A DNA stretch of 64,000 nucleotides from an uncultured Nitrososphaerales archaeon (GCA_963709405.1 CAVPXM010000026.1:1-64000), one strand, 5' to 3'. Shown: positions 13,398-58,165, counted from the stretch's first letter. The notes: generated by a model not told the origin, from the sequence alone. Numbers and translations: made by a program.

Positions 13398-13445
13398 TAA
13401 ATTCTTTTCTAGTGTTAAAAATAACCTGGGTATCCAGGGTGCAGT
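13398..13445. repeat. Repeat family B, left-arm copy
   Basis: aaattcttttctagtgttaaaaataacctgggtatccagggtg matches the reverse complement of 57732-57768 and 44535-44577. Confidence 0.8.
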
Positions 13446-13625
13446 AATGGCTCAATCGCCTGTTTCTTTTAGGTATCTTAATTATAGTGCAAGCTTCAGC
13501 AGTCCTTTATTCGGAGCAGTCCACATCAATATCTCACTACCATTATCATCCAAGTACCCGACAACGTTTCTAGCATATCTGTACGAATTTCAAATAAACC
13601 AGTACAGATTAGTACAGAAAAGTAA

Positions 13626-14648
13626 ATGAGTTCAATTCATACTTTTAATCTTGAAGCTATCAAGCCACAAGCTGTTTGTAATGGAGGCTCTCGAGCGATG
13701 GCTAATGAGAATAATTTCTCTTTACTTAAAGGAATGGCATTGTATTTGCTGCGACTAGACAGTGGTGGTATAAGAGAACCACACTGGCATCCAAATGCCT
13801 CTGAACTCAGCTACTGTTTATCAGGTAGAGCTCTTATGACCATCTTCAGCCCTGGAGCTGGACATGATACCTTTACTGTCGATACGGGTGAGCTTGTGTT
13901 TGTTCCTAAAGGCTATCTTCATCACATCGAGAATATCCATCACGGAGAAACTAAATTCGTTATTGCCTTTAACCACGAGAGTCCGGAAGATATTGGAATA
14001 TCTGGATCAACTGGTTCAATGACTGACAACGTACTTGGAGTCACATTTGGAGTTGAATCTGATTATTTTGGCAAATTCAAAAAATCTAGTCAAGATTTAC
14101 TCATAACCTCCAAATCCAATCCTTATAATACCACAACCACTTATCAGAAAATTCCTAATTACCACAAATTTAACCTTAAGGCTTTTCCACCTACGGTACA
14201 AAGCGGTGGAGGTACGGTTTCTCTAGGCAATGCCAATAATTTTGGGATTCTTAGTGGTCTTGCTTGTTATCTTCTGACTTTGAAACCTAAAGGCATACGG
14301 GAGCCTCACTGGCATCCTAATGCAGCCGAATTGGACTATGTCATAAGTGGAAGAGCGCGGATGACCATCTTCAGTCCAGGGGATAACGTGGATACGTTTG
14401 AAGTTGGCCCTGGTGAAATCGTTTTTATTCCCTCCGCGTACTTTCATTATATAGAAAATGTGAATGCTAGTGAAGATATGCAATTTGCAGTCTTCTTTAA
14501 CCATGAACGACCAGAAGACATCGGCATTTCAGGCGCCCTAGGTGCGTATTCAAATGACGTCCTAGGATCTGTTTTTGGTTTAGAGCCAAAAATCCTGGAT
14601 GCATTACCAAAATATCAGGAGGATCTCTTCGTTGTGTCTGGAGGCTAA
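13626..14648 (+). CDS. oxdC: Bicupin of the oxalate decarboxylase family
   Basis: Two IREPHWHPNA.E Mn-binding cupin motifs, each followed by a H-H/Y-IEN motif. Confidence 0.85.
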   Translation: MSSIHTFNLEAIKPQAVCNGGSRAMANENNFSLLKGMALYLLRLDSGGIREPHWHPNASELSYCLSGRALMTIFSPGAGHDTFTVDTGELVFVPKGYLHHIENIHHGETKFVIAFNHESPEDIGISGSTGSMTDNVLGVTFGVESDYFGKFKKSSQDLLITSKSNPYNTTTTYQKIPNYHKFNLKAFPPTVQSGGGTVSLGNANNFGILSGLACYLLTLKPKGIREPHWHPNAAELDYVISGRARMTIFSPGDNVDTFEVGPGEIVFIPSAYFHYIENVNASEDMQFAVFFNHERPEDIGISGALGAYSNDVLGSVFGLEPKILDALPKYQEDLFVVSGG

Positions 14649-14711
14649 TTAATTAATAGGCAGAATAACAATTGACAGTCCACCAGATCATGGTTGTTGA
14701 ATTAATCGTTT

Positions 14712-14850
14712 GGGCGCGCGCAAATGAATGCGCACATGACACGTTCCTAATGATGTTCTCCACATCGTTATTAGAAGACCCTATTTCCGATATTATTATG
14801 GTAGATTTTACAAGAATCCGATATTGTCCAATGGTTTAAACTTACTGGTT
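14712..14850 (+). repeat. Repeat family A, internally deleted copy
   Basis: gggcgcgcgc head, then catcgttattagaagaccctatttccgata..tccgatattgtcc. Confidence 0.65.
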
Positions 14851-15286
14851 GTAAACACGGTTCTACTCTAACCAACGAATAATAATTTTGATAATGACGC
14901 GAGTCGGCCGTCAGACCACGATCCAGGAAATTCTAATTCACTGCTAAGTCAACTGCTAGGCGAAGAATCTACAAACTATCGCTTTAGAATGAAACCTGAG
15001 GATTTAACTATCTCAGATACCGTGCTGTTTCTTGACCTCAGTCTGATTCTAGCATTTGCTTGCTTTGCCAAGCGCTGCTGCAGGAAAATTACTGGTACAG
15101 ATGTTCATTTTTGTTTTGGCAGTTGTTTTGAACACTGGGATCATACGTAGTTACACCGATTTATCGAATTTAGTAAGAGCAGTAATCAAAATTCAGAGAT
15201 GATCTGCCATTAATTGAAGCATCACTCTTACGGCTTAAGATGTCATCGTGTTATGTGATAGGTCTTATCTATCGTACTACATATTT

Positions 15287-15480
15287 AGCGCGGGCCTCAT
15301 GATAGAGATGCATATACATATAATGCTCTACCATCGATGTTCGTATATAACGAACAGTCCGTCTACACAGATGATGTCTCATCTTAGAGACTGTTATAAT
15401 CTGGCGTACCGCACATCTGTATCAGAGAACATTTTTCCGATATAACTATAGAGGGTTATTCAAATCTGAATTTGCCTAAC
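15287..15480 (+). repeat. Repeat family A copy
   Basis: gcgcgggcctcatgataga..gtctacacagatgatgtctcatcttagagactgttataatctg..tttttccgata. Confidence 0.85.
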
Positions 15481-15587
15481 ACGGATTGGCTAAAGAAATG
15501 TATTGCCAATCTCACTTTGTAATATGTCCGACATATGTTAGAACGAAGAATAATGTATTTCTCAATTCAAAAGCCTCAATTTATTGA

Positions 15588-15857: not shown

Positions 15858-15949
15858 TCTTTATTAGTATAGTATTCAAAGCGGGGTTGGGGCGATTACC
15901 AACTCTTGTAGTAAGTTAGTTTAGCCAACTATCTTATACACAAACAATT

Positions 15950-17343: not shown

Positions 17344-19008
17344 TCATCCACATAGTTGACTTCGTAATTGCCTGGCCATCTCAGCATGTAATCCACCTAC
17401 AGCCATATGTCTGTTAATTGCTTGATCGCATGCTCCTGAGTATTTATTGTTATCTTCTCCAGGACCAGAACTAAGGGCATTGACATTATTGTCATCGGGA
17501 CTACTCTTGACAAACCCATTACCACTTTGGCCATTTCCTGAAAACCTATCATTATTGCTCTTGCTATCGCCTGATTGAACTCCAATGACATTTACTGCAT
17601 TACCATCTCCCTGTATTTGGTTAGCTAGGTTTTGGCAATTAACATCAGAGGCGCCTTTTCCATTTCCACAAACGTTAGCCTGTGCGATTGCTTGGCTTTG
17701 ACCATGATGTCCATGTCCATTGTTGTCATTGCCAGCACCACCACCACCGCCAGCTCCGCTCTGTTGTACACCAATCTGTCCTGTCTGGCCATCATTACTA
17801 CCACTATTACTACCATGACCATGACCATCTCCTCCACCTGATTGAACTCCAATGACATTTACTGCATTACCATCTCCCTGTATTTGGTTAGCTAGGTTTT
17901 GGCAATTAACATCAGAGGCGCCTTTTCCATTTCCACAAACGTTAGCCTGTGCGATTGCTTGGCTTTGACCATCATTACTTCCATCCTTGTTATTACCGCC
18001 ACCTTGTACTTGATTTGCAATGTTCTGACAATTTACGTCACTTGCTCCGTTGCCATTTCCACAAACGTTAGCCTGTGCGATTGCTTGGCTTTGACCATGA
18101 TGTCCCTGTCCATTGTTGTCATTGCCAGCACCACCACCACCGCCAGCTCCGCTCTGTTGTACACCAATCTGTCCTGTCTGGCCATCATTACTACCATGAC
18201 CATGACCATCTCCTCCACCTGATTGAACTCCAATGACATTTACTGCATTACCATCTCCCTGTATTTGGTTAGCTAGGTTTTGGCAATTAACATCAGAGGC
18301 GCCTTTTCCATTTCCACAAACGTTGGATTGTGAAATCACCTGCACTTGGTCGTTATTGTTGTTATTGTTACCTCCGTTATGATTGTGATTGTTACGGTCG
18401 TTATTGTTGTGACCACTATTATGGTTATTGTTATTATTATCATTGTTACTAATTACTTCGAATGATGTACTAACAGTCTTTGCAGCATATCCGTTACCAG
18501 ATACCCTCGCCGCAACATCGAAGGTACCAGTATCTGCACTAGAACTAATTCTTACATTGAAAGTTGTTTGTCCGTTATCATCTGTATAAGAAGATCCTGT
18601 TGCCACTTTTCCCGAAGGAGGATCTATTGCAAGCCTAACAAGCGCATTATTAATCTTATTATTCGTATTTGCGTCTCTTACTATCACTGTAATCTTTTGT
18701 GTATCGCCTTGTTGTATCGGATCTTGATCGACGCTGACCCTCGTTTTAAGTTGTTTTGCCGCATAAGCTTTGTTATCCTCTTGGCCAGTTCCATTAAGAG
18801 GATTGAAGGGCAACAAATACAATTGTGCAAAAATGGAACTGCATAAAATCATGGACATTACAACTAATGCAATTGACGAAGCTATCGGAGTATTATTTGC
18901 ATGTATCTTTCTAACTGAATTTAAATTAGTCAATATTTTATGTCTAGGAATTGGACAGCATAATTTTATTAAAGATTTAAGAATATGATTTTCATATTCG
19001 AAATACAT
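17344..19008 (-). CDS. Exported protein with a TM/signal segment, an Ig-like domain and Gln/Asn/Gly-rich Cys-bridged repeats
   Basis: Hydrophobic segment at about aa 44-65, beta-sandwich-like region at aa 85-185, four NVCGNG.GASDVNCQN.ANQ repeats. Confidence 0.85.
   Translation of the reverse strand: MYFEYENHILKSLIKLCCPIPRHKILTNLNSVRKIHANNTPIASSIALVVMSMILCSSIFAQLYLLPFNPLNGTGQEDNKAYAAKQLKTRVSVDQDPIQQGDTQKITVIVRDANTNNKINNALVRLAIDPPSGKVATGSSYTDDNGQTTFNVRISSSADTGTFDVAARVSGNGYAAKTVSTSFEVISNNDNNNNNHNSGHNNNDRNNHNHNGGNNNNNNDQVQVISQSNVCGNGKGASDVNCQNLANQIQGDGNAVNVIGVQSGGGDGHGHGSNDGQTGQIGVQQSGAGGGGGAGNDNNGQGHHGQSQAIAQANVCGNGNGASDVNCQNIANQVQGGGNNKDGSNDGQSQAIAQANVCGNGKGASDVNCQNLANQIQGDGNAVNVIGVQSGGGDGHGHGSNSGSNDGQTGQIGVQQSGAGGGGGAGNDNNGHGHHGQSQAIAQANVCGNGKGASDVNCQNLANQIQGDGNAVNVIGVQSGDSKSNNDRFSGNGQSGNGFVKSSPDDNNVNALSSGPGEDNNKYSGACDQAINRHMAVGGLHAEMARQLRSQLCG
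17570..18324 (-). repeat. Intragenic near-identical direct repeats
   Basis: A block of about 105 bp at ~17570, ~17838 and ~18218. A second block at ~17660-17803 and ~18052-18195. Confidence 0.9.
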
Positions 19009-19273
19009 AATAATCTAATAAGGCGAGAATGTAGAATTAAATCATAGATGAAAGTAATCGAAAATGAATACTTCTCTTTCTATAGAATTATGATACAGAT
19101 TATTGATTGATATTAATACTTATCCCGCTCACTAGCATGCATATATTAAAATTTCATTTCCAAAATTGGAATATATTGGTAGTAACTAATGATATATATA
19201 CAACAATCATAAGCTAAAACGAAGAATAGTAAACAAATATTTTACAATGAATAATAACTAAAATAGTTTATAT

Positions 19274-20260
19274 TTGGAACTGAGCGTAAATGAACTATTG
19301 TTAACAGAGTCTCTACGTAGGAAGATCTGTAAATGTGACAGACCCAAAGCGTTTCTAGATACCATAGGAAAGAACAGCATAAGGACTAGAAGCAATTATG
19401 GAATCGCGCTAGTCCACTTACAGAGATTCCTTTACAATCGATTTAATGGAGAACATAATGTAGATTCTATTATCGATTTAATATCAAGTAATCAGATAAA
19501 TGTTTATGAGTTACTCGATAATTTTGTTTCCTTTGAAAGTATAAAGAAAAATCAGGAAAAAAATAAACCTCAGAGCATAAAAACTCACCTAGTAGGAATA
19601 AAATCATACTTTGCATATTACGATATAGATATCATACCATCTAAATTTAAAAGGAAAGTAAAGATGCCAAAAACCCTTAAGGAGAAGGAGGAGCCAATAA
19701 ATGCCGCAGATATTAGAAAAATCCTATTGTCGTGCAATAACCGCAGGCTTAAAACATATCTCTTGATTCTGGCCTCCGGAGGACTACGCGCAGTCGAAGG
19801 ATGTGCAATAAGAATAAAGGATATCAATTTTAAGGTCAACCCCACTATGATACGTATTCGCGCGGACTATACTAAAACAAGAGTTGCACGAGATATTTTC
19901 ATTTCAGATGAAACAACTCGATATCTTAAGCAATGGCTAGATTGGAAATATCGTGAGAGAGGCTTAAATCCCGATGATCTGATATTCAATACATTTAACG
20001 TAGAATCAAAGCCCGAGACTCTGTACGTAAAGTAGAAACAGAATTTACTAAAGTACTAAAGGTTGCTGGTTTAGACGACAGGAAAGAAGGAATGAGACGA
20101 AGGAAGATCACACTACATTCGCTAAGACGCTTTGTTAAAACAGTGATTTCTGATGAAGTTGGAGGAGACTATAGTGAATGGTTCTTGGGTCATAATGGCA
20201 GCGTCTATTATACTAAAAAAGAGTCTGAAAGAAGAGAGATATATCTCACTTCCTCTCTTC
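19274..20260 (+). CDS. Tyrosine recombinase/integrase, frameshift near 20030, C-terminus apparently truncated
   Basis: ASGGLRAVE (R), YTKTR (K), TLHSLRR (HxxR), FLGHNGSVYY (H/Y). Confidence 0.9.
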
Positions 20261-20377
20261 CTTTCTTCATTCCTCTAAAATGTATTTGTTGTGATATCTA
20301 GATATTGAGCATGATTTGATATATCTGATTATTCTGAAATTTGAGAAGCATAGATGCTGCAGTAGCTGGAGATGCCT

Positions 20378-20435
20378 ATAATAGAATTCAAAACTATCTC
20401 GGGTATCTAGGGTGTAAAACGCAAGGTCCAATTAT
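20378..20435. repeat. Repeat family B, right-arm copy
   Basis: tataatagaattcaaaactatctcgggtatctagggtg matches 57803-57840. Confidence 0.75.
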
Positions 20436-20439: not shown

Positions 20440-20635
20440 AATCGACTCCGCCAATTGATGGTATCTATAGATAGTAGCATATTAGTGGATGTAAACCAAA
20501 ATATTTAGGTCTATTAATATCTAGCAAGTTTTTAACATATCGGACAATATCTGATTCTAAGTCCGGTTTAGTTATCTCGGAAATGGTGTCTTCTAATAAC
20601 GATATGCAGCATATCAGATTATAAATATTTTCAGT
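20440..20635 (-). repeat. Repeat family A copy (3' part)
   Basis: ctatagatagtagcatattagt..ggtgtcttctaataacgatatgcagcatatcagattataaa, with the palindrome at 20601-20615. Confidence 0.85.
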
Positions 20636-20799
20636 ATTTAGTGTGAATTGACTTTACATGTATCTCCTGTCTTGTGTGTATTGCAATTTTCATATAGGTG
20701 ATCGTTACCATCTGAAGAGCATACACTGGGCCATATAGCCCACATTATGTCATCAAACTTCAAATATCATTTGACTCAGTAGCAGATTAAATTAGTCCT

Positions 20800-23627: not shown

Positions 23628-23774
23628 ACATAAATTATATAATGACTTTGAGCCAACACCTAATTTGTATATCTCAGTCAGGGCGCACACGCACTTAAGT
23701 TTCCAGTTACGGTGATCAATTATACATAGAATGCAAAGCATATCTCAGGCATTCCCATAATTGTACCTAAATCA

Positions 23775-23960
23775 GACTATATCGAATATAACATCAGATC
23801 CAGAATGAAGTCGAAAAAAGTGTCTTATAATACGATATGCAGCGTATCACGATTATAAACATTCTTAGAAACTGAGGTATCATCTGTGTAGACTGACGGC
23901 CCTGTGATTAACAGATAATGATGATAAAAATTTATGCGTATGTCTAACATAAGGCGCGCC
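23775..23960 (-). repeat. Repeat family A copy
   Basis: aaaagtgtcttataatacgatatgcagcgtatc..attataaacattct..atctgtgtagactgac..ggcgcgcc. Confidence 0.85.
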
Positions 23961-29298: not shown

Positions 29299-29475
29299 GG
29301 TAGATTCCAATCTTTTGAACGTTGCGGTCACAGTTTTGGAGTTAAGAAAAGTCGTCTCGTTTCGTATTCTAATTGCACTCTATTATTATATACAGTAATT
29401 ATAACTTCAATTCTTCCTTACATTAGAAAATAACCCGGGTATCCCGGGTGTTAGATGATACTAGATCCAATTCTA
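29299..29475. repeat. Repeat family C copy 2 followed by a family B left arm
   Basis: C at 29299-29358. aattcttccttacattagaaaataacccgggtatcccgggtg at about 29409-29450. Confidence 0.8.
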
Positions 29476-29861
29476 TGGATAAGATCTCCCCATTATACCC
29501 TATCCAACTTCAAATCACTAGGGACAATTGGGATGTAGAGAAGCGCGCCTGCTCGTGTTCCTATCTATCAACTGAATTGATAGACCAATCTCAGCTCGAT
29601 AACCTACTTCTTTTATGATAATCCGACAATGCCATGTGTAACGCTCCCAAACCGTAATTAAACCGAGCCCATGTAAAACAAAATCCTTTTGCTCCTTGCA
29701 AACTACTTCCTGAAATAAAGAAGGCAGATTTGGATTTGATAGAGCATCATATCCAATACAAAGGTCCTGCTGCGCATAAATCAGAATTATTAAAATGCCC
29801 CGAATGGGTTATTCTATAAATAGGTAACACTCCCGGACTTAATTACTCATGAACAAAATTG

Positions 29862-30185: not shown

Positions 30186-30189
30186 ACTT

Positions 30190-41905: not shown

Positions 41906-41907
41906 CC

Positions 41908-42095
41908 GACAGTCTATACATCTGAAACATTACTTTAGAAAAACGTTTTTAATCTGATATGCTGCATCTCGTATTATAGAACACTCTTTCCGAAATATAA
42001 TATCAGACTTTTCAAGATCTGATATAGTCCGATGTGTTAAAACTTAGTGGATATTAGCAGAATAAAATACATTGATTCATATTGACTAATTATTA
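41908..42095 (+). repeat. Repeat family A copy, headless
   Basis: cagtctatacatctg..taatctgatatgctgcatctcgtatta..tttccga..tccgatgtgttaaaac. Confidence 0.85.
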
Positions 42096-43927: not shown

Positions 43928-44270
43928 TCATCCCTCTAAACAGTTCTTGTCTAATATAATGCAGCATATGGCGCGCCCCACCATTCTACTACTACTCAAT
44001 CTCTGCTTTATCTTATCATTAATGAGCCATATTCTAAAATCGCGCGACAGATAATTTATCGCAGGTCTTTGACCATTCCATCGTTGTATTATTTTAACTT
44101 CCTGCCCACGCTTCGAATTGATGGTATCAGGAACTCTTACAAGACAGGAGTTTATTGTAGGATTATGTTGAGAATCTCCTTTCTTATTCGTTAGAAACTC
44201 TTCTGCAAACTGCATAAATTTAGATGTCAGATCTTTTCCATCTGACGTTACTGAGTAGAATCTAATGGAA
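43928..44270 (-). pseudogene. Primase-like fragment of the thaumarchaeal primase-PriX family
   Basis: FAEEFLT.KKGD..H.P...SCLVRVP.TINSK..EVKIIQRWNG.RP. Family recognised from memory. Confidence 0.55.
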
Positions 44271-44517: not shown

Positions 44518-44620
44518 AATTGGATAGGGATTTACACCCGGGATACCCGGTTAATTTCAACTCTAGAGAAGAATTTAGTGATGTATATAGAAGATTATAA
44601 GACAAAAGTAAATTATAATA
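44518..44620. repeat. Repeat family B, left-arm copy
   Basis: cacccgggatacccggttaatttcaactctagagaagaattt, nearly identical to 57732-57768. Confidence 0.85.
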
Positions 44621-44821: not shown

Positions 44822-45122
44822 ATGAATACTCTAAGCCTATTCGTGATCGTTTTACTGGCCTCGCTGGCAGCCATTGCGTTGGCTGTATTCGTTGCATCTA
44901 ACCCCTTAAGTGTCATGGCAAAAGATAGCGGCACCTTCAGCGGTGACAGTAGCGACAGTAGCGACAGTAGCGACAGTAGCGACAGTAGCGGCGATACCAA
45001 CAGCAATAGCAATGACAATAGCGATCCCGTTGAATCCTGATACTATTATAGAAATGTGGTATAGGCTCGTGCAGGATGACGATAATAACATCAAACCAGA
45101 ACAAGAATACGAAGCTCTCTAG
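44822..45122 (+). CDS. Small exported Ser/Asp-rich protein containing a 9-bp tandem repeat
   Basis: Signal peptide and (gacagtagc)x5 at 44945-44989. A frameshift probably extends it to 45122. Confidence 0.55.
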
Positions 45123-45867: not shown

Positions 45868-46265
45868 ATCGTATAGGATGGACTGCGGCGTAACTGCTTC
45901 ATTAAATGGAGAAATGAATGAGCTCATTTCTTATTCTCTTTTTATATTATCTAAGGTATTTGGCGCGGGCGGTCATGACTTATATACAAATAAAGCGTTA
46001 TCTGATCAGTCTCGTTATATATCAAATCTTTGGTCTATAGATCTCACGCTTCATTTCCAAGAATGCTTATAATCTGGCATGCCGCATATCATATTATTAT
46101 AACGCTATTTCCGGGATATTATGGCGGATGTGTTAAAAAATCCGATGTTGTCAGATGTGTTAAACGTACTGCATGTTAACGTAATTAGTATGTTGATTCG
46201 CATCGACCAATTGCTACTATCTATAGATATCATCAATTGGGAGTCGACAGATATTAAGTTCATCA
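45868..46265 (+). repeat. Repeat family A full copy with a 5' extension shared with 54404-54700
   Basis: ggatggactgcggc..catttcttattctctttttata..ggcgcg..tataatctggcatgccgcatatc..ttgctactatctatagatatc. Confidence 0.9.
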
Positions 46266-46498: not shown

Positions 46499-46699
46499 TT
46501 GTTCACGTCTGAAGAGATCAAAGAAATTTTGAGAAAAAGAATTACAGAAAAGGAGAAGAAGGTAAATCCTCGCCGGTATAATCTAAGGCAAGTAGAAGAT
46601 GCTCTGGCGGAACTAGAGACGTACCAAAGTTTTTTAGCAGATATTACGGATGAAGAGGCTAGACGTGAAATGAATAAGAGTAGGATTAAAAGTTGTTAA
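46499..46699 (+). CDS. Small helical hypothetical protein, paralogue of 27229-27471
   Basis: Shared protein motif and shared upstream sequence. Confidence 0.65.
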   Translation: MFTSEEIKEILRKRITEKEKKVNPRRYNLRQVEDALAELETYQSFLADITDEEARREMNKSRIKSC

Positions 46700-46721: not shown

Positions 46722-46905
46722 GCGCGCGCCTCATGATAGAAAATACACATTTTATCATCTTAACCAAACGTGAGTCTATACATATGATCTCTCAATCCAG
46801 AAAACCTTTTTAAAGTGATATGTTTCATAATGTAAATAGAAGACGCTATTTCCGATATGGTTATACCTAACTTTACAAGAATCTCATGTCGTCTAAAATG
46901 TTAGT
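46722..46905 (+). repeat. Repeat family A, diverged copy
   Basis: gcgcgcgcctcatgataga..gagtctatacatatg..tagaagacgctatttccgata. Confidence 0.75.
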
Positions 46906-47228
46906 CCGTTAACTATTCTAAAAGGATCCGTCTTAGTGGCAGTCGTGGCGGATCATCTGGTGACGACAATTGAGGATTCTATTTCCAAGCGGCTGAGATA
47001 ACAATCACTTACCATCGGCAAGAGAGATTCAGTAACTAGTAGCAGAAATGATTAAGGAGATCTGGGATAGGATCAGCAATACGCTGCGAAAATGACTAAT
47101 GAGAAACGATAGGTACTATAGTGTCGCTTTGCCAATGTTAGCAAAAGCGACAAGATAGAGACCAGTGATGAAGTCGCAAATCCTATCATATTATCATTGA
47201 AACCAACCTATTCCATGATTTTTCTTAC

Positions 47229-47453: not shown

Positions 47454-47674
47454 AGGAAACCTGACGCATTATACCATTTAATATTTGGGATTTATTTATT
47501 TCAGTGTCTGTTATAGAAGAATCTCACCTTCATTTTCATGTCTAGGTATTCCAATGTGTTAGTCTATACTTCTGAGGTCTCATAGTCGAAAAGGTTTTTA
47601 GCGCGGTATTTTTCACACCGTTAATAGAATATCCGATATAATTTGATTGATTTTCGACTACGAGAGCTTATGAT

Positions 47675-48009
47675 TAGTCAACACATTGTACAAGTACGTA
47701 TTTTCTATCTTTAGTTTTTTCCAGACTTATTGGTAGAAAATCACCACTCATTGCAGAATTAATATTATATTTGATCATGTAGTTCGGAGTAAAGTCCGGT
47801 TACCTAAGATTACGACATCTATCGAGCCAATCCCTAATAATATTGGATGCTTCATCAGCAGAACATTTTCTGACGTTAATAAGGTAAGGAGTTACGATAC
47901 GCCTTACAACAAATTTCTTATAATCAACTAAGGGAGTTTGCAATTGCTTCTCGATCCACCAGATCGTTGTTGAACCTGCAGTCCGAGAGCGCGCCGGTCT
48001 AGTGGACAC
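47675..48009 (-). pseudogene. PriX (primase non-catalytic subunit)-like domain remnant
   Basis: WIEKQLQTPLVDYKKFVVRRIVTPYLINVRK..IIRDWLDRC. Confidence 0.7.
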
Positions 48010-48476: not shown

Positions 48477-49652
48477 AGTTATGTAAACATGTAGATGCTT
48501 TCTCCATGTAAACTGTTTATACTAGTTTTGCCTCTATGTTTTTTATTATAATCACATGCCCAATCAGATACTGCTTTACCTATATCACGTTCATTTTGAA
48601 AGGTGGAATTGTTTATTGCTTGTCGTTGCATCCATAGCCATCTTACCTCTATCAGATTGAGCTCGGGTGATCTGGTGGGAAGAAATACAAGGTGTATCCT
48701 TGGATGATATTTGGATAATACTGCTTTCACCTTGTTTGATTTATGTATCGATACGTTATCAAGTATCAGAAATATCTGCTTGATACTATCGTCATACTTT
48801 TGGTCCATTCTTTTGATAAAATCTAAAAACTGTTTTCCGGTTTTCTTTTTGTAGCCATGCGTCCACATTTGATCATTGGTATAATCGTATATACCAAACA
48901 CGTTTAGAATTCCCTTTGTCTTTTGAGCTTTGGATACCTTAGACTGTGTAGAGGACCAAGATGTACCGCCATATGTTTTTGCTACTATCGGTCCTTTCTC
49001 ATCCTCGTAGAGCAGGACCGAGTCAGAAGACAGGTTACTGTATCTTAGTTCTTCAATTCTCTTTTTTTCAAATGATATTCAGGATCTAGGCTGTATCCCA
49101 GAGTAATCTTTGACTGCCTATATTTTATTCCGTGTTTTAGGAGGATATTTCTAACCTCGGTGTGGCTGATAGCATCTACAAGGCTCATCTCCTTGGAGAC
49201 AAATCCTGCTAGTACTCTTAATGACCATGTGGAAAATGGTAATCCATAATCTTTTCTTGAATTTTTGGTTGCTATCTCCACAATCTTATTCTCCATATCG
49301 TCAGATATTTTGAGTGGTTTATGCTTGTGTATTTTTGATGCTATTCCATCTATACCTTTTTCATTGAAACGATGAATCCATTTTCTTATGTTGCTATCAT
49401 GATGGTTAGTTGCCTTCCTTATTTCAGGAACTGTGTATCCATCATCCTTAAGAAGAATAATCTTTGCACGGTATCCAGATTCTCTATCCTCAAGTATGCT
49501 ATCATGTAACCTATTCTTTTCATTATTTGTAAGCAATCTGAGGAATGTATCCCTCATGCTGATAATTTAAAAGAGAGTAAGCTAAAGGTGTTATGGTATC
49601 TGAACGAGCACTGTTAGTTTACAGAAGAGCATTACATATTCTTTACATAACT
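48477..49652 (-). mobile_element. IS630-family insertion sequence, complete
   Basis: TIRs agttatgtaaa / tttacataact. Flanking direct repeat gttaag at 48471-48476 and 49653-49658. Confidence 0.9.
48479..49557 (-). CDS. tnp: IS630 transposase in two frames joined at an A7G slippery run near 49065
   Basis: HTH ORF ([18 protein letters not shown]), then [24 protein letters not shown]. Confidence 0.9.
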
Positions 49653-50600
49653 GTTAAGCCAGTATCTCAATGTAGCAATGGACCCAGAGCCTAATAGAGA
49701 CAAGGTGAAAGAGGTATTCAAGCAGATGTATGCAAATCCTCTATTATTGTCTGATATAGTGGTTGATGTCTTTATGACAACAATCAGGGAAGAAGGTGCT
49801 AAAAATGCTTTCAAAACTGCCTTTAATGACAGCACTACCCGACCGATCGGCTTCAAAAGGCTTGAGAAGCTTAAGCATATCCCTTGTTTATTGATTTGGG
49901 GAGATCAAGATAATGTAATACCTGAAAAAAATTCCAAAGATTTTAAGGACGCTCTGATTAATGCTAAGTATGAGATAGTCGAAAACGCTGGCCATGCCCC
50001 ATTTGTAGAAAAGACCTCTATAGTATATGAAAAACTACGTTCATTTCTAACTTGATAGATTTCAACCATAAGTTTGTCGCAGGTGGTCTTCTGATCTAGC
50101 TTTCCAGCATTGGTTAAAGCAAACTAAGCTTGAGCAATCAATTTAAGTGACGTTGCATTTTGTCAGAAAGCTCCTCCATTAGGGACCCAATTAGCATATC
50201 TCTCCGGACAATAATTTCTGTCGATTAATAGACATCATGCCATAAATGCTCACGTATATCTCAAACTACAAAATACTTGATCCTGCTACGAATTTGGTTC
50301 ATCATTACTAAAAAAGCGACTAAGGGATTGGGCGCGGTTCTCGACATCCAATTGTCTTGTAATTGTATCGCTAGTGATTTGAAGTTGGATAAGGATATAA
50401 TTGGGGGGCGTTATCCATAGAATTGGATATAGTATCATCAGAGGGCGAGTCTGAGATTAACCAGAAAATCAGGTTTGGTTAAGGCTCAAGCGATGATTAA
50501 CAGATGTTCAGGAAGAATAGTCATATTACTATCATCATCTTTTGGAACTTTTACGTTACCTTTTACATAGTGTTTATTGTCATGGGTTCTGGTGCCACGT

Positions 50601-51437
50601 CTAGGATTTCAAGAAGGACAACAGGTCGGCGTTGAGCTGATCCTGATGGGTTGCAGTGAGGCCGTGAGGTGCGCCAGGATAGTAGATTTCCTTCGCGCCC
50701 TTGATGAGCTTGGCCGATTTCTTAGCCGAATCCTTGACGGGAACGATTTGGTCGTCCTCACCATGCATGACCAAGGTTGGGACATCGAACTTCTTGAGGT
50801 CCTCGGTGAAATCAGTCTCAGAGAAGGCCTTGATGCTTTCGTAGGCGTTCTTGAGGCCAGCGTGCATGCTCCAGAGCCAGAACTGATCCAGGATTCCCTG
50901 GGAGACCTTGGCCCCCTGCCTATTAGCGCCGTAGAACGAGATGGCCAAGTCCTTGTAGAATTGCGAGCGATCCTTGGTTAGGCTCGAACGCAAGTCATCA
51001 AACACTTCCATCGGCAGGCCCTCCGGATTGGTGGCTGACTTCAGCATGATCGGCGGCACAGCCGCGATTAGGACAGCCTTGGCAACTCTCTTCATTCCAT
51101 AGCGACCGATATAGCGGGCGACTTCGCCGCCGCCGGTAGAGTGTCCCACTAGCGTGGCTTCCTTGAGATCAAGCGCCTCGATCACGGCTGCAAGATCGTC
51201 GGCATAGCCGTCCATGTCATTTCCCAAATAGGTCTGGCTCGACCTGCCATGGCCACGACGGTCGTGTGCAACCACGCGGAAGCCATTTTGGGCTAGGAAA
51301 AACATTTGGCCGTCCCAAGCGTCTGAGCTTAGGGGCCAGCCGTGCGAAAAGGTTACGACTGGACCTTTGCCCCAGTCCTTAAAGTAGATTTCTGTGCCGT
51401 CCTTGGTCGTGATCGTGCTTGAGTCTGATTTACTCAT
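50601..51437 (-). CDS. cpo: Non-heme chloroperoxidase / arylesterase (alpha/beta hydrolase)
   Basis: [42 protein letters not shown]. Confidence 0.92.
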
Positions 51438-51619
51438 TGATAATCCAGTACAAATTAGAGTTTATAAGTATATAAAAGGAACAAAAGTACAGTTGCAATA
51501 CATTTTAGGCCCAGAAAAGAAACTTGTAGATAGTTGAAATAACGCTCATGTTCTTTATCTTCTTGTATTTCTTTTCTTCCACTATCAGTATTAGTCCATC
51601 TATTAAAATTTTCACCGTT

Positions 51620-52207
51620 CCGTTTGTGTCTCAATCTGATGCAGGTGAGGCAAAGATTTTTTCTCGTTTCATCAATAAAGATCGGGGAAGGTTTTCTAGT
51701 ATTATAAACAAGAGACCAATCGTGAGCAGACTGTTCTTTCCATCCAGACGAGCTTTCGGGTTTTATGACAATATGTGCAAGCTGATCCCTGCTGTGCGAA
51801 CAGCGCGTATTCAAGTCTTCATCGTACCTCATCACCGTTGGAGAGAAGGAGGCTATAAGGGATGGAAGCATATGAATCCATCACAAATCCGTTCAAACGA
51901 GTCCCAGAGTTTTGCTACTGGAACTTGGGGTGGAGAGTTTCATCCTGAATTTGGTCCTCGCGAGGGAGATGTAATCGTGCTCGAGCACTGGGCACAAAGC
52001 GGCTTTGCCAATACGGATCTTGATGCTCAACTCAAGCAGCGGGGGATCCAGAAAATAATCTTGGTCGTAATGATAGCGAACACCTGTATCGAAGCCACAG
52101 ATCGTCTTGGCATGGAGCTTGGCTACCATGTTAGTCTCATTAAGGATGCAACTGCTGCGCTCAATCATGAAGGCATGCATGCAATAGTTTTTTTATCTAC
52201 CGTATAG
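51620..52207 (+). pseudogene. Isochorismatase-family cysteine hydrolase, truncated
   Basis: GTWGGEFHP..SGFANTDLDAQLKQRGI..ANTCIEAT..ELGYHV..DATAA. Confidence 0.8.
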
Positions 52208-52370
52208 AAGTTGAATCGATGGTTTGAGGGGGCGCGATCCAAGGATTAGAATAGAATGACATATACAAGTTTACGTGTTGGTTTAGGCAGTGGCTATTGC
52301 TAAGGGCTTCATTTAGGAGTTGCAAAGTCATCAAACCTCAAAATAATTCTTGTCCTATAAACGCATTATT

Positions 52371-52560
52371 TGGCGCGCGCCCTAAGGCTGAGTTGCAAAT
52401 GAAGTGTTCTCATTAGGTCTATTTCTCATCAAGGTCTATATATCAAATCAATTGAGTCTATACAGATAATGTCTCATATCTAAAAATGTTTATAATCTGA
52501 TATGACGCATATCGTATTAGAAGACACTTTTTCTGATGGATTTATACTGGATTGATGAAG
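52371..52560 (+). repeat. Repeat family A copy
   Basis: ggcgcgcgcc..gagtctatacagataatgtctcat..tttataatctgatatgacgcatatcgtattagaagacac. Confidence 0.9.
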
Positions 52561-52675
52561 CATTCTATATGGTTCTGTTTGACTAGAATCAAGGGAAGCT
52601 TTCTAGTAATCTGATTCTATCTAATTTTCATTTTTATCTCCCTTAAACACGGGATAACCCTCCGTTCACCTAAGT

Positions 52676-52787
52676 TATCCGTAAAGGTTGCGGTCACTTA
52701 ATCTATTTCGACGAGAACCAACGTACTGAAAGCGGGAAATGGATTCCATTAAGTAACGACACAGGAGAGCCGCATCAATGTCAATAG
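52676..52787 (+). pseudogene. Zn-finger-like mini-domain, copy 1
   Basis: RKGCGHLIYFDENQRTESGKWIPLSNDTGEPHQCQ*. Confidence 0.55.
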
Positions 52788-52860
52788 ACAGGAAAGGAGA
52801 CTATGCTTTGTATACCCTTAAGCAAAACATATTAGTCGCATATTTTATGGGGTAATCTGT

Positions 52861-53160
52861 ATGAGCCAAAAAACCATGGCTATAATTTTAATATCTACAA
52901 TGATCACTATCAGTATAGCCACAATAACTAATAATTGTATTAATATTGCTTTAGCACAGCCTGGTTCAACTCTACCGGCAGAATCTGGCCGGCCTTCACC
53001 ACCAGCATATCCATCACAATCAACAGGACATCTATCATATCCATCATCATCGCTAATACCACATGCTAAACAGGCGACAAAAGTAAATCCAACGCCTGCT
53101 GGAAATATTACTGCTAGTGGTCCTTCACACTTCACTTCTTCCCCTATTCACAGTAAGTGA
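52861..53160 (+). CDS. Small exported Pro/Ser-rich protein
   Basis: Signal peptide and a low-complexity mature region. Confidence 0.55.
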   Translation: MSQKTMAIILISTMITISIATITNNCINIALAQPGSTLPAESGRPSPPAYPSQSTGHLSYPSSSLIPHAKQATKVNPTPAGNITASGPSHFTSSPIHSK

Positions 53161-53194
53161 ATAGCAGGAACAAAGGCGACAGAGTGAGAGACGT

Positions 53195-53323
53195 TATTAT
53201 AGCTGCCGTAAAGGCTGCGGCCAGTTAATTTATTTTGATGCAAATGACGAGAATGGACTTGCTGAAAGCGGCAAACGGATTCCATCGAGTAAAGACACGG
53301 GACAACCACATCAATGTCAATAA
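53195..53323 (+). pseudogene. Zn-finger-like mini-domain, copy 2
   Basis: SCRKGCGQLIYFD..ESGKRIPSSKDTGQPHQCQ*. Confidence 0.55.
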
Positions 53324-53393
53324 CAAGAAATAATACTGATCCTGAAGAACTTCGCAAGTTGGAAGGAGTGATATGAATGTGGACAAAGACATT

Positions 53394-53568
53394 GGGCGCT
53401 GATATCCAAACCAAAGTGGAAGAATTAGAGGAATTAAATCAATCACTAAGGCAGCGTGATAAAGTAAAGGATGATGCAATAGCACAATTATCAAATCAAC
53501 TTGTATCTTTATCAGCTAGATTACAAGAGCTTGAGAGAAAACAAAGCGTAAGCATACCAAGCCAGTAA
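53394..53568 (+). pseudogene. Tyrosine recombinase C-terminal coiled-coil tail remnant
   Basis: GADIQTKVEELEELNQSLRQRDKVKDDA is the same peptide encoded at about 40447-40530. Confidence 0.75.
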
Positions 53569-53915
53569 ATACTTGTTCAATTTTTAACTCTCAAGTTAAT
53601 GACATCCAGGAACCTAGAACTATTTTCTGTTACGCCATTTAGTACTATTGGCAGACAGAATGTCATAAGCTTGATGAGTAAATGTCCAAGTCTAAAAGTG
53701 CGCGCAGGCATAAGAATACAACGACCATAATAAAATATACTGCCTAGATTCTCAAAATTGCCTATTATCTGTTCAAGCTCTTGGTAAATACAAAATAAGG
53801 TTTACGATGCCACAGTATAACTATAGTGAGGTACTATCTACTCAGTCTTGAAACAGCATTAACTAATCTGAAAAATGGAGGCGGCAAGGTTCTCTTAGAG
53901 GAGATTGGACTCTAA

Positions 53916-54335
53916 ATGAATTATATTATATTCGCAGCTATGGCAGCGATCTTGGTCTTTACCACACTGACATCCAACACTTTCGCACACGTATCAGATC
54001 AACAACGCTATAATGATGGATATAATGCTGGCCAAAACTACGCGGCCTGCGATTATAACAATTGCTATCATAGTGATCATGGTTACGATACAGGCTGCCC
54101 AAATGATAAAGTACATACTAACGAATATTGTGATGGATACTCACTTGGTTATACTAGTAAATGGAATTCATTAGCAGGTGGAACATCGACACAGCAATCT
54201 CAATGCCAAGCGCAGGGTGGATCTAATGTACGTGTAGATGGCAGTCATAATAACATAATCATAACTCCTAGACAGACCCAAAAGCAGTCATCAAATAGTG
54301 AATCGAATTCTGAAAATGCTGACTACGGTAAGTGA
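53916..54335 (+). CDS. Secreted Cys/Tyr/Gly-rich protein
   Basis: Signal peptide, YNDGYNAG..C..HTNEYCDGY motif. Confidence 0.7.
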   Translation: MNYIIFAAMAAILVFTTLTSNTFAHVSDQQRYNDGYNAGQNYAACDYNNCYHSDHGYDTGCPNDKVHTNEYCDGYSLGYTSKWNSLAGGTSTQQSQCQAQGGSNVRVDGSHNNIIITPRQTQKQSSNSESNSENADYGK

Positions 54336-54403
54336 TCTGAGGAGGTGAATAGAAACAATTGAAAAAATTAGTAGTAACTAGCCTAGCATTAGCGATGATG
54401 ATG

Positions 54404-54700
54404 ATCGTGTAGGATGGACTGCGGCACAACTGCTTCATTATATGGAGAAATGAATAGGCTCATTTCTTATTCTCTTTTTATAGTATCTGCGGCATCTGGC
54501 GCGCCCCTGACTAACATATGGATAAAGTATTATCTGTCTAATGCTATGTATATCGAACCAAGTCAGTCTATACAGATAGTGTCTCATTTTAGAGAATGTT
54601 TATAATCTGATATGCCGCATATCGTAATAGAAGACACTTTTTCCGATAGAATTATTCTGGATCTGATGGAATATCCGATATTGCCCGATATATCTTAAAA
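54404..54700 (+). repeat. Repeat family A copy with a 5' extension
   Basis: Contains gatatgccgcatatc at 54609-54623 and aligns with 45868-46160. Confidence 0.9.
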
Positions 54701-54701
54701 T

Positions 54702-55001
54702 CTACCTATTCGCTAACTCTGCTAATGTATCGCCATGACACGGCAGAGGTGCACACCAACAACCTAGGACTTTGCCTTTTAACTCTGGAAGCTGGTTCAT
54801 TAATTCGTTGTTTTCTGGGGATAGTAACCATGTCCTATGCTTGGCTATAACTTGTTCTCTAGTACCGTCTTTACCGACTACGAAGGGATTACCCCATCTT
54901 CCATCGCTGCCGCAAATATCTCGACGTATAGCCAGCGAAGGCCGGCCAATATACACATCATAAGGCCATTTCTTGCAATGGACTACGAACTTGCTGGTCA
55001 T
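54702..55001 (-). CDS. DUF4326-family protein
   Basis: VYIGRPS..WGNPF..LKGKVLGCWCAPLPCHGD. Confidence 0.88.
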   Translation of the reverse strand: MTSKFVVHCKKWPYDVYIGRPSLAIRRDICGSDGRWGNPFVVGKDGTREQVIAKHRTWLLSPENNELMNQLPELKGKVLGCWCAPLPCHGDTLAELANR

Positions 55002-55413
55002 TTCTCATTCGTTGCCTTATCTTATAATTTATTCAGTCTCATATGCTTGTATACAGAATCAAGAATATGAATTAGAACAAAAGCAAAAACCATATAGTCA
55101 TAGTACGAAAATTTAACAAACGGCTAAGGGAGTTAGGCTTAGCGTACATGTGTACTCGGATAGTGTCGAGCATACACACCAGCAACTGCTAGAGCTGTAC
55201 GCAGGTATTGAGACAGACTTACGCAGTCATGGAATTGCAATAGCTCCTATGTCAGCGGCAAACGGAGCAATGAGGGAATAGGCGATGGACCTGTTATTAA
55301 CCAAATGTAATCAAGGAATTAATAAGTGGAGTGCCGCACTTAGTTTAAGAAAAATATCCACCGTAAAGTAAAGCATAAATCTACTGGTGACCTGAAATCT
55401 CATTAACATATAC

Positions 55414-55998
55414 TTGTCTTCTGAGTTTGTAATTAAGAAAGGGCCGAAACAATGGGAGGCCAAAATATTCTCAGGAAAAGAGGAAATCGCTGAAATAAAG
55501 AAAGGAGAAGGCCTTAGTTTTAAACTCGTAAGACCCAAGGACAAGATCGAATGGGTGCTTGCTAATTTGGTGCATGGTGAGCACCGTCCTTTCTCTTTCT
55601 CAGTGCGCAAGGCTGGAAAAAAAAGCACCAGCCCGTATACTGACAGCAACGACTTGGGAGATGAAATATTTGTTGTCCGTGACCAGTTGTTCAAGCATAA
55701 TGGCAAATTTTACATGCTCGCAAGTCATCCAGAGGATAAGTCTTGGAATGAATATGTTAATAGTTCAATCAGGTACATCTGTAGGCTAGATGACTTTCCT
55801 TACTCAGAGCTTTCAGAAGTCGACTACCATCATTACACTTTACGGGACAAGATAAAGAGATTTCGCGGTAAAGCCGTTGGTGAAGCTTCAGGTTTGGGAA
55901 TAGAAGAGCGAGGTCACCGTGTAAGGCTAGATAGCGAATTAGAGGACGTAGGGTTATTCATCGCTGCAATTTCATATTTGCTTTATGCCTCGGGCTGA
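55414..55998 (+). CDS. Hypothetical protein
   Basis: 194-aa ORF directly upstream of the oxidoreductase. Confidence 0.65.
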   Translation: MSSEFVIKKGPKQWEAKIFSGKEEIAEIKKGEGLSFKLVRPKDKIEWVLANLVHGEHRPFSFSVRKAGKKSTSPYTDSNDLGDEIFVVRDQLFKHNGKFYMLASHPEDKSWNEYVNSSIRYICRLDDFPYSELSEVDYHHYTLRDKIKRFRGKAVGEASGLGIEERGHRVRLDSELEDVGLFIAAISYLLYASG

Positions 55999-56075
55999 TA
56001 AATAGAAGTAGTTTCACGAGATATTTTTCGGCATGATGTAACTTTAATAAATCAGGCGGTCCACATTCATTTTAA

Positions 56076-57565
56076 ATGGTTGACCCAAACCGCGTTGGTG
56101 GATTTCCTTTTCGTAAAGCAGACGCAGAACAACGGAAGATCGATTTTTCAGAGGTTCAACAACCCTACTCTGAGGAAGAGGTTATGCAAGAAGCCGAGCG
56201 TTGTCTTTTATGTGGAACTCCTGTTTGTATAGATGCTTGCCCAGTTCTTTTGGATGTTCGAGGTATGAACGAGGCTGCGGCCAGAGGAGACTTCAAAACA
56301 TCCTATGAGCGGATCAGAGAAACAAACCCCTTGCTGGGTGTGACTGCCAGATGCTGTCCTCAGCTGCAAGGATTATGTGAAGATGCTTGCGTTTTGAAGT
56401 GGTCAGGACAGCCAATCGGGATCGGTCTCATTCAAAGATATATTGCAGACTGGGAAAGAAAAAATCGACAACCACCTGTATCCATCGAACAAGATACGGG
56501 AAAAAAGGTGGCAGTTGTCGGCGCTGGGCCCGCTGGCCTTGCAGGTTCTGCTCTTCTCAGAAGATATGGTCATCAGGTAACAATATACGAAGCATCTATT
56601 ATGCCAGGCGGGACCGCATGGTATGGGGTTCCAGATTATCATCTGCCTAAAGAAGTTTTAATTGATGAAATCGAAAAAATTAAAGCGATGGGGGTCAACA
56701 TAAGAACCAACACTACTGTAGGAAAAGATGTAACACTCTCTCAACTTCTAGAGGAAAATGATGCAGTCCTAATTACTACAGGCTCGAAAGACACTGCGAA
56801 CCTAGAGATCCCCGGAGTTAATCTTAAAGGAGTTCTGAGCGGATACCAGTTTCTTGAAAGTGTTTTCTTGGAAGGACTGGAAAGTTACTTGAGTAATCCA
56901 AAGTATAGTCTGGGTAACGATATTATTGTAATAGGCGGTGGAGACACATCTCTTGATTGCGCGAGGACTGCGTTAAGGCTTACAAAAGGGAAAGGCAACG
57001 TTACCGTATTATGCTTGCAGCCTGAAACCGGATTACATGTTGACCCAATAATGCTTGAAGAAGCAAAGGAAGAGGGAGTGAAGTTCAGGTTCCTTGGGCA
57101 GGCAAAGTCTTTTGAAGGTGACAGTAACGGACATGTCGTAGCGACAATAATTGACAGTGTACACATGAGTGCTCCTGATCAGTCAGGAAAGAGGCATCCA
57201 GAGGTTATACCAAATAAAGAATTCAAGATGCCAAGTTCTACAGGTACTTATAGCTATTGGTAGAGGTCCAAATTCCTTTCTCCAAAAGAAGGCCGGAATC
57301 AAGACTCGGCAAGCGTAATTCGATTGCAATTGCTGATGACTACAGAACATCTATGAATGGGGTCTTTGCTGCAGGAGACGTAACTAGTGGCGAAACTCTA
57401 ATTGTAAAGGCAATGGAAAAGGGACGTGAGGGCGCTCAAAGAGTTCACGAATATCTAATGGATTTGGAAGCCGACCACATGTCGTTTTACGAAAAATATT
57501 ACACAAAAATCTCATATGATAGGATGTTGGAAGGCAAAAATGATGTTAGCTCACCTCCTGATTAA
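56076..57565 (+). CDS. GltD/SudA-like FAD/NAD(P) iron-sulfur oxidoreductase, frameshift near 57240
   Basis: RCLLC..CIDACP, GAGPAG, GGGDT..D, VFAAGD motifs. Confidence 0.9.
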
Positions 57566-57731
57566 AGAATCAAAGTGTATTTCTGTTCTTCTTGCAGTAC
57601 ACGGTCCACTAGGCATAGGCGTCACAAGTGAATCAGTTGTCCTAACGGACTTGGTGTAATAAGCAATGTTAGAACACCTAATAAGATGCTAAATACAATA
57701 TTGCATTTCCTATGATTAAGGGTCATGCTAT

Positions 57732-57840
57732 GGATACCCGGGTTATTTTCAACTCTAGAGAAGAATTTGAGGAATATGTAGGACGATATATTAACCGAAA
57801 GTTATAATAGAATCCAAAACTATCCCGGGTATCCCGGATG
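57732..57840. repeat. Repeat family B complete unit with inverted ends
   Basis: ggatacccgggttattttc ... aaaactatcccgggtatcc. Confidence 0.85.
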
Positions 57841-57879
57841 CAATATTAGGACGATATCTGTATAATCAACTGCTGCTAG

Positions 57880-58165
57880 CCCTGACTTACTAATGAAGTG
57901 TTATCTTTACATCGCACCAAGTCAGTCTATACAGATAATTCTTGATTTCAGAGAACGTTTATAATCTGGCATGCTGCACATCTGCATTAAAAAAACAATT
58001 TTTCCCGAGTTAACTGTATGAATTTTCCACAAAATCTGAAATAATCCGACGTGTTAAAACATGCTGGATATTAACAGAATTGATTAGGCGGTTCATATCG
58101 ACTAATTGCTACTATCTATAGATATCATTAATTTGCAGAGTCGACAGATTTTGTTTATGAGTTCA
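57880..58165 (+). repeat. Repeat family A full copy
   Basis: ccaagtcagtctatacagata..tttataatctggcatgctgcacatc..ttgctactatctatagatatc..gagtcgacag. Confidence 0.9.

Follow-up and report, generated by a model that had tools for sequence, protein, structure and literature searches.

Repeats A and B in a 64-kb stretch of a Nitrososphaerales genome: candidate relics of decayed integrative PrimPol/integrase elements

Two families of short repeats, here called A and B, are scattered among accessory genes between 13 and 58 kb of a stretch of archaeal DNA, and their arrangement raises the question of whether they are the sites of a working recombination system or the debris of mobile elements. The first 64 kb of contig C26 from an uncultured Nitrososphaerales archaeon form this stretch (hereafter the window; 64,000 nucleotides (nt); GCA_963709405.1 CAVPXM010000026.1:1-64000). 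The metagenome-assembled genome (MAG; G000), from the family Nitrososphaeraceae, comprises 4.83 Mb in 100 contigs with a GC content of 37%. An earlier note had proposed that a tyrosine integrase and these repeats shuffle accessory gene cassettes in the manner of integrons or Xer/pdif modules, or else that the repeats mark where a family of repeatedly integrating elements has left its ends scattered. Our analysis supported this interpretation in part. The A and B repeats are biologically meaningful, and our judgement comes down, if only slightly, on the side of the window at 13–58 kb being a stack of decayed integrative elements of one genus-specific family, encoding a predicted primase-polymerase (PrimPol) and an integrase, with A and B as their relics and control modules and not as cassette-shuffling sites. 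The second proposal of the earlier note fits this account, in that A is, in congeners, the terminal non-coding module of an array of integrase, 842-amino-acid (aa) open reading frame (ORF) and PrimPol, and the remnants are co-oriented.

The existence of repeat A, as claimed in the earlier note, was confirmed with a profile built from 10 window copies and run with nhmmer (E < 1e-3) on the 100 contigs of the genome, which returned 77 matches on 37 contigs. The 13 matches in the window are as follows, with nhmmer E-values where available; SDR denotes a short-chain dehydrogenase/reductase gene.

14751–14840, plus strand: partial A, profile positions 47–136 (E 2e-11)
15357–15492, plus strand: full A (E 8e-27)
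20528–20641, minus strand: A, profile positions 22–139, convergent with the integrase (E 9e-23)
23760–23897, minus strand: full A (E 1e-27)
30026–30153, minus strand: A, with a higher-GC stretch beginning just past it in the GC profile (E 1e-26)
41598–41736, plus strand: A, 5′ of the SDR stub (E 2e-28)
41910–42044, plus strand: A, truncating the SDR gene (E 4e-20)
46032–46171, plus strand: A, followed by a palindrome at 46198–46240 (E 1e-29)
46770–46908, plus strand: A (E 6e-24)
47558–47649, plus strand: A, profile positions 1–98, abutting a PrimPol 3′ remnant
52453–52592, plus strand: A (E 1e-29)
54562–54700, plus strand: A, the best-scoring copy (E 9e-37)
57921–58060, plus strand: A, followed by a palindrome at 58104–58144 (E 4e-27)

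The core of A spans ~140 nt and has a median pairwise identity of 69%, with identity above 95% in just 0.4% of pairs. Conservation is strongest at TCTATACA (positions 6–13) and TTTATAATCT (positions 38–47), followed by a 7-1-7 palindrome, and many copies have an extra ~100 nt in common upstream, including a GGCGCGCC box. The stretch near 52371 that had been assigned to B is such an upstream extension of A, on which the B profile was silent; a degenerate B-like stretch was recognized near 52645 by reading alone. Past position ~95 of A, the sequence continues in one of two ways: CCGATAT-like repeats lead on to a 14-nt perfect palindrome and then a B-like arm, or the 3′ flank of a PrimPol gene follows. 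The coverage profile and the alignments gave graded boundaries without sharp shared ends. RNAalifold applied to both strands of 38 copies found no consensus pairs, and A is conserved in sequence instead; a search of the whole window against Rfam at the gathering thresholds returned no match, placing A and B outside every curated RNA family. Copies of A were present in all six congener genomes searched, but neither 12 other genera of the family nor 12 genomes from the order's other families yielded any. A literature search on these repeats turned up nothing.

An indication of what A belongs to came from its neighbours. When the ORFs around all A copies were clustered, one family was found at a fixed place, on the opposite strand and ending ~150–170 nt after the start of A, and this ORF proved to be the C-terminal part of a protein of ~345–385 aa (PrimPol), intact copies of which are present in congeners. 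Among 22 tblastn matches to the PrimPol C-terminus in G000, 12 had A on the opposite strand at most 400 nt past the gene end. Two remnants of this gene lie in the window.

44003–44242, minus strand: PrimPol remnant, residues 154–233 (tblastn, 77.5% identity)
47710–48003, minus strand: PrimPol 3′ remnant, residues 237–334, convergent with the A copy at 47558 (tblastn)

Sequence matches to PriX (PF18689, E 8e-10; NCBIfam PriX, 67.6 bits with a cut-off of 50; PDB PriX profile, E 2.6e-13), a structural model and its fold matches together lead to the prediction that the 345-aa protein is a primase-polymerase in which an archaeo-eukaryotic primase (AEP)-type catalytic fold is joined to a PriX helix bundle. 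The AlphaFold2 (AF2) model obtained from an alignment of 47 sequences reached a predicted local distance difference test (pLDDT) score of 83.5, a model from only 7 sequences (pLDDT 47.5) being unusable, and its best fold matches were the RepB′ primase (E 5.6e-6), the CRISPR-associated Prim-Pol (CAPP), the cyanophage S-2L PrimPol and PriX. A protein-atlas lead agrees with the Prim-Pol assignment. The 345-aa protein, an AEP-like catalytic domain and then a helix bundle, thus has its best fold matches in the RepB′ primase of plasmid RSF1010 and Prim-Pol enzymes (3H20, 7NQD, 6ZP9) and in Sulfolobus PriX (4WYH, 5OF3); unlike in those proteins, its sequence is only 11–14% identical to the catalytic domains, its gene is multi-copy and mostly decayed, and its activity is a prediction from the model. 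In public and metagenome proteins the PrimPol-PriX family comprises 2035 clusters at E ≤ 1e-5, annotated there merely as 'PriX', and to our knowledge neither the mobile-element context of this family nor its partner ORF has been described. Two further PrimPol-PriX paralogues, on contig C38 (95328–96479 and 46830–47891), are intact and show 44–51% identity to the mobile subfamily; one of them, beside Rad50/Mre11-like genes, may be a resident or domesticated copy.

In the congeners, PrimPol and A are parts of a larger unit. A segment of ~3.7 kb consisting of the 842-aa ORF, the 345-aa ORF and A is 72–79% alike among four species. The order integrase, 842-aa ORF, PrimPol and A (minus strand) was found at loci L056 and L039 and in reverse at L038, whereas at L059 integrase, PrimPol and A occur but nothing matches the 842-aa ORF, and L041 carries the 842-aa ORF, PrimPol and A. 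In these units 1–2 kb of other sequence separates the integrase from the 842-aa ORF, and A lies ~30–120 nt from the PrimPol stop codon. By eye, the 842-aa ORF (L041:1126-3654, congener G003) has a Walker-A-like GSGKN motif, a C-terminal C2H2-like motif and short VASVA repeats.

We analyzed repeat B in the same genome. A B profile (arm ~47 nt) detected 34 arms in 23 loci, with 6 arms in the window, confirming that this repeat, too, is real. The window arms are listed below together with a palindrome module that accompanies some of them.

13388–13444, plus strand: solo B arm, with a hairpin and T-run on the minus-strand reading (B profile, terminator scan)
20360–20417, plus strand: solo B arm, with the integrase 3′ end on one side and the palindrome and A on the other (B profile)
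29397–29453, plus strand: solo B arm, with the strongest terminator-like hairpin of the region, 7 pairs, 6 of them G-C (B profile)
44532–44579, minus strand: solo B arm (B profile)
57732–57843, no strand: back-to-back B pair, a 120-nt palindromic unit resembling a miniature inverted-repeat transposable element (MITE), with arms at 57732 (minus strand) and 57785 (B profile)
20442–20479, no strand: palindrome module with a perfect 14-nt core; further copies at 46198–46240, 58104–58144 and 29876–29935

Genome-wide, 11 loci are back-to-back pairs and 12 are solo arms. A pair measures 115–127 nt and consists of ~45-nt inverted arms with a tandem 9-mer in each; the arms fall into two subtypes, and the terminal 9-mer repeat has an alternative fold, a 7-bp G+C-rich hairpin with a T-run after it, which was called terminator-like in four of the six window arms. 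At 13 of the 23 B loci a copy of A occurs no more than 2 kb away, compared with 1.2 expected, a count equalled in none of 2000 random draws, and the 10-nt core of the palindrome occurs 6 times compared with 0.4 expected. These two counts exclude a chance origin of the A, B and palindrome pattern. The close associations described in the earlier note were likewise recovered, with B and A adjacent at 57732–58144 and near one another at 29397–30153.

The compact B pairs, the abundance of insertion sequence (IS) transposases in the region, and an SDR gene cut by A at codon 22, where soil-run contigs continue with other sequence, could together suggest that A and B are independent MITEs, mobilized by IS transposases acting in trans, without any functional tie to integrase/PrimPol elements and clustered by insertion into dispensable DNA. 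We regard this explanation as unlikely. The place and strand of A are fixed relative to the PrimPol stop codon across species, and A has neither terminal inverted repeats nor sharp shared ends nor visible target duplications, so that the combination of terminal inverted repeats and small size was found in the B pair only. The B pair shares with archaeal MITEs a length of ~120 nt, long inverted arms and many copies; unlike in those elements, solo arms are as common as pairs (12 versus 11 loci), and the arms resemble terminators, with a hairpin and a T-run. Moreover, no larger element with a transposase bounded by B arms was found, no consistent target duplication was visible in the flanks of B pairs, and conservation extends past the outer end of some arms.

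The window also contains remnants of three integrases.

19262–20268, plus strand: tyrosine integrase (PF00589), corresponding to residues 1–336 of the 411-residue open frame of a paralogue on contig C49, with one frameshift near 20030 and the C-terminal quarter replaced
40276–40594, plus strand: C-terminal fragment of a second integrase family (tblastn, 77–84% identity to a C42-type integrase, residues 315–420), at the right edge of a conserved block
53395–53544, plus strand: C-terminal fragment of the second integrase family (tblastn)

The C49 paralogue of the first gene is intact, with 405 aa from its start codon, and its DNA is 92% identical to that of the window integrase up to 20249. Both are convergent with A, and the integrase also matches phrog_1.

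The arrangement at this gene is as the earlier note described, with the integrase (19262–20268) followed by B (20360–20417), the palindrome (20442–20479) and A (20528–20641, minus strand). This direct adjacency invites the explanation that A, the palindrome and/or B are crossover sites of neighbouring tyrosine recombinases and that the segments between them are swapped as cassettes by an archaeal counterpart of the integron or Xer/pdif systems. The window integrase retains an HxxR-like and GH..YY stretch, its presumed catalytic region, and varied accessory genes do lie between co-oriented A copies. In addition, A behaves like a hinge whose left and right flanks vary: among A neighbourhoods of high identity, two independent pairs change partner at A position 94–96 (e.g. 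at 41692 and 54656 of the window), and 6 of 13 left-half copies end at profile positions 94–106. However, right-half copies begin at profile positions 22–59 and not at the end points of the left halves, and there is no sign of recent exchange, because A copies are so dissimilar (69% median, 0.4% of pairs above 95%). Proximity to integrases, for which the earlier note had suggested a test of genome-wide enrichment, was not general: just one of the 26 PF00589 loci, that of the window itself, has A or B at most 2 kb away, compared with 1.6 expected, and within 5 kb of the 26 loci A was found at 4 (2.6 expected) and B at 4 (1.07 expected, p 0.024), the latter being the one marginal excess. In the second integrase family, which is very abundant, A is directly adjacent in 1 of 15 loci; at two other loci, A is 3.3 kb away in one and a B pair is 1.6 kb away in the other.

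Comparison with the known cassette systems gave little encouragement either. The window resembles an integron in its one-orientation repeats with diverse accessory genes between them and a tyrosine recombinase at one end. Unlike in an integron, A lacks an attC-like consensus fold, both strands carry genes between A copies, many of them fragments, and coding density there is low, the repeat does not travel with the cargo in relatives, and the integrase is not of the integron type (TIGR02249, 22.9 bits for the C49 paralogue compared with a cut-off of 265); neither an IntI-type integrase, nor folded attC sites, nor a co-oriented array of single-gene cassettes was found. Acinetobacter plasmids have Xer/pdif modules, in which accessory genes are flanked by short palindromic sites, and here, too, short palindromic sites lie at accessory gene modules. 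Unlike those modules, the window showed no 28-nt dif-like site of 11-6-11 form on inspection by eye (the spacers in three palindromes are 1, 3 and 0 nt), its A copies are direct and not alternating, and the intact C49 paralogue scored far under the NCBIfam cut-offs for XerA (67.5 bits, cut-off 220), XerC (32.1, cut-off 335) and XerD (29.5, cut-off 330). For three cargo segments, homologues were compared at 6 loci of the relatives G004 and G001, and 5 of these loci were free of A and B for several kb around. The integron or Xer/pdif-like system suggested in the earlier note was thus not borne out: an active cassette system is unsupported, and we consider it, like the crossover-site explanation as a whole, decidedly improbable.

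The orientation of the remnants also favours the stacked-element account. Neighbouring A copies have the same orientation in 32 of 40 pairs (p 2e-4). On contig C79 (3.6–20.8 kb, L029), four co-oriented PrimPol 3′ remnants lie 5591, 5337 and 4824 nt apart, are 61–88% alike, and have SDR, peptidase and IS genes in between; three of them carry A just past the 3′ end. At 41–58 kb, the window has eight co-oriented A copies, two PrimPol remnants, one integrase fragment, an IS630-like element and hydrolases. The C79 array is the cleaner of the two. In congener L039, three A copies pile up after one element, and most units of G000 are reduced to A with a 3′ piece of PrimPol or to A alone. A separate observation is that the orientation of A is weakly associated across the genome with the sign of the local GC skew (odds ratio ~3–4, p 0.01–0.05), the copies being non-independent.

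The earlier note had further claimed that genes break at the repeats and that others are bracketed by them. Several of these claims stood up. A bicupin gene (oxdC-like, with two Cupin domains; 13626–14648) lies between B at 13388 and the partial A at 14751, and the gene at 46499 is a 66-aa ORF (46499–46699) flanked by the A copies at 46032 and 46770. The SDR gene is indeed interrupted by A.

41835–41957, plus strand: SDR gene stub, matching an SDR N-terminus over residues 5–22 and then running into the A copy that begins at 41910

A GC-shifted segment does begin at a repeat edge near 30190, GC being 0.457 over 30001–31000 and 0.375 in the kilobase before. The PsbP gene said to break at 29298 proved hardly broken by B, as it reaches profile position 173 of 184; the PsbP_2 matches are weak (E 0.006 and 0.008, in two adjacent ORFs). 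In two soil metagenome runs, contigs agree with the SDR stub as far as 41899; beyond it their sequence differs and by our reading would carry on an SDR frame. Over 40–60 kb, soil-run contigs contain many joints between copies of A, B and the palindrome, all with short sides of 21–42 nt at the repeats; such joints can stem from other copies or from the assembly graph and give no verdict on excision or exchange.

The partner switch near A position 95, the ends of the half copies and the SDR continuation fit either modular exchange at A or insertion of A-headed units. A variant of the former is that A modules serve as junctions for head-to-tail stacking and for trapping accessory genes, with the crossover near A position 95, so that the arrays would be a working archaeal form of cassette capture; we think that there is little chance of this.

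Synteny was also compared with five congeners, the earlier note having proposed a check of whether breakpoints in relatives coincide with A or B. Conserved gene order was limited to 32.6–39.9 kb. The repeat-rich flanks are non-syntenic, with only scattered repeat matches in relatives for the 40–60 kb stretch and with the relatives' flanks scattered over many G000 contigs. Between the syntenic block and the nearest A there are 2.4 kb at one edge and 1.7 kb at the other; the species (~75–85% gene identity) are too diverged for a fine breakpoint test. The pattern that the earlier note had set against its own hypothesis, namely repeats independent of integrases together with a conserved gene order between repeats, was found in its first half, in that the repeats are largely independent of integrases, and not in its second, as inter-repeat gene order is not conserved in relatives.

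With the stacked-element account preferred, we infer the following functions for A and B. From its motifs, the first ~95 nt of A would be a promoter/operator module, with the TATA-like TTTATAATCT preceded by an A-rich stretch and followed by the 7-1-7 palindrome. One of two alternative modules would join past this point: a set of three CCGATAT-like repeats with the palindrome and a B arm, or else the 3′ flank of PrimPol. Any transcript starting from A would then run antisense into the PrimPol gene or the integrase, or would stop at the B hairpin and T-run. By likeness to plasmid pRN1, which has a copy-control or regulatory RNA, the A transcript may itself be such an RNA. The remnants would be co-oriented because related elements had integrated head to tail, time and again, at one site and then decayed, and the accessory genes would be cargo or trapped host DNA.

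A promoter-like module need not belong to a mobile element. The peak of conservation at the TATA-like block and adjacent palindrome, and the position of A, which in the C18/C44 duplicate pair precedes an SDR gene by ~320–350 nt and in the window lies ~240 nt upstream of the SDR stub, would suit a host promoter/operator of an accessory-enzyme regulon that is kept by co-regulation and not by mobility. However, no consistent ORF follows A, the first same-strand ORF of at least 60 aa starting 156 to >2000 nt from the A start and being mostly tiny. In addition, the ~140–270 nt conserved go far beyond what an operator needs, many A copies face the 3′ end of a gene, and tandem copies lie a few hundred nt apart. 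We consider a regulon of this kind very improbable, the least credible of the explanations weighed here.

Several observations count against stacked, decayed elements as the source of the repeats. Congener locus L040 has the 842-aa ORF and PrimPol without A, and the two intact PrimPol paralogues of G000 on contig C38 lack A as well. Direct repeats of attachment (att) type of at least 16 nt were not found around three integrase-to-A units, where only internal tandem repeats were seen, and the ends of the element are therefore undefined; nor was a clean empty site found within G000, where there was one messy candidate (C43 versus C6). In most cases the integrase and A perhaps do not form parts of one element, because integrases are not near A genome-wide and those of the second family seldom are. 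Searches of Pfam, PHROGs, NCBIfam and PDB assigned the 842-aa ORF to no family, and in the protein atlas it matched only hypothetical clusters, at 0.85 or less; a helicase role, prompted by the Walker-A-like motif, is a guess. The proposed promoter, antisense RNA and terminator roles rest on motif reading, and tandem duplication with divergence could also give co-oriented arrays. Finally, the 'broken' genes are partly uncertain because the MAG carries indel errors. In the contigs of all four soil runs examined over 40–60 kb, single bases are missing at 57243 and 57305 and several at 56002–56052, positions in or just 5′ of a split GltD-like gene (56076–57263 and 57257–57565), which indicates that this split is probably an assembly indel error; further split genes (Amt, helicase, PhoD and a histidine kinase) may be assembly errors as well.

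Integrated elements of Thaumarchaeota, as described by Krupovic et al. 2019 (PMC6563490), combine integrase and primpol modules and form arrays through re-use of one site. The elements considered here resemble these integrated mobile genetic elements and cryptic integrated elements (CIEs) in having a tyrosine integrase and a primpol-type replication module whose partner is sometimes a separate gene, as well as accessory cargo and the ability to form arrays at one re-used site (PMC6563490). As regards membership of the CIE type, an integrase was found inside the element at L056, L039 and L038, upstream of the 842-aa ORF and PrimPol, and a replication module was found (AEP/Prim-Pol fold and PriX); neither attL/attR at three units nor an empty site in G000 was found. 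Unlike in those elements, no att direct repeats were found at the three units, the primase has a PriX-like domain fused to it and is partnered by an 842-aa ORF outside known families, and a conserved non-coding module of 140–270 nt occurs in ~77 mostly solo copies per genome.

The remaining features of the window are in keeping with a mixed content. A Pfam scan found such usual archaeal genes as Amt, P-II, ComA, rhodanese, helicase, PhoD and ZnuA amid IS transposases and many short or split ORFs, and ARAGORN found no tRNA target in the whole window.

32571–39906, no strand: conserved chromosomal block with helicase and rhodanese genes, syntenic in 5 of 5 congeners; an IS at 34821–35776 interrupts it
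48479–49557, minus strand: IS630-like transposase in two ORFs, with DDE_3 and HTH domains

The IS-like stretch at 34821–35776 (~960 nt) lies just 5′ of the conserved helicase and has at least 35 copies in congener G004 (~77% identity) and 17 in G000. A 554-aa ORF (17344–19008, minus strand) with internal direct repeats of ~126–267 nt and a weak MG2 domain match is probably a repetitive surface protein. At 44938–45000 there is a tandem 9-nt repeat in 5–7 copies, which encodes Ser/Asp-rich or Val/Ala/Thr-rich runs depending on the frame. Near-identical sequence to positions 50001–60000 of the window occurs in soil and sediment metagenome runs from 11 studies, and 8 runs contain half or more of the words sampled from it; the organism, or at minimum this part of the window, is thus widespread in soils.

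Five of the six congeners have genomes of 3.4–4.9 Mb, the sixth being a 2.1-Mb MAG that is 75% complete, and those of the other genera sampled, at 1.2–3.5 Mb, are smaller than most of them. The window shows one route by which DNA builds up in this large-genome genus, namely the stacking and decay of integrative elements, a decay that leaves pieces of replication and integration genes alongside conserved non-coding modules and accessory enzyme genes that are still intact. If A modules did act as stacking junctions, cassette capture would have helped the genomes of soil Nitrososphaeraceae grow to 4–5 Mb. If A is a promoter, a copy-control module or a recombination junction, it would offer a handle on mobile-element control in a group of archaea lacking a genetic system.

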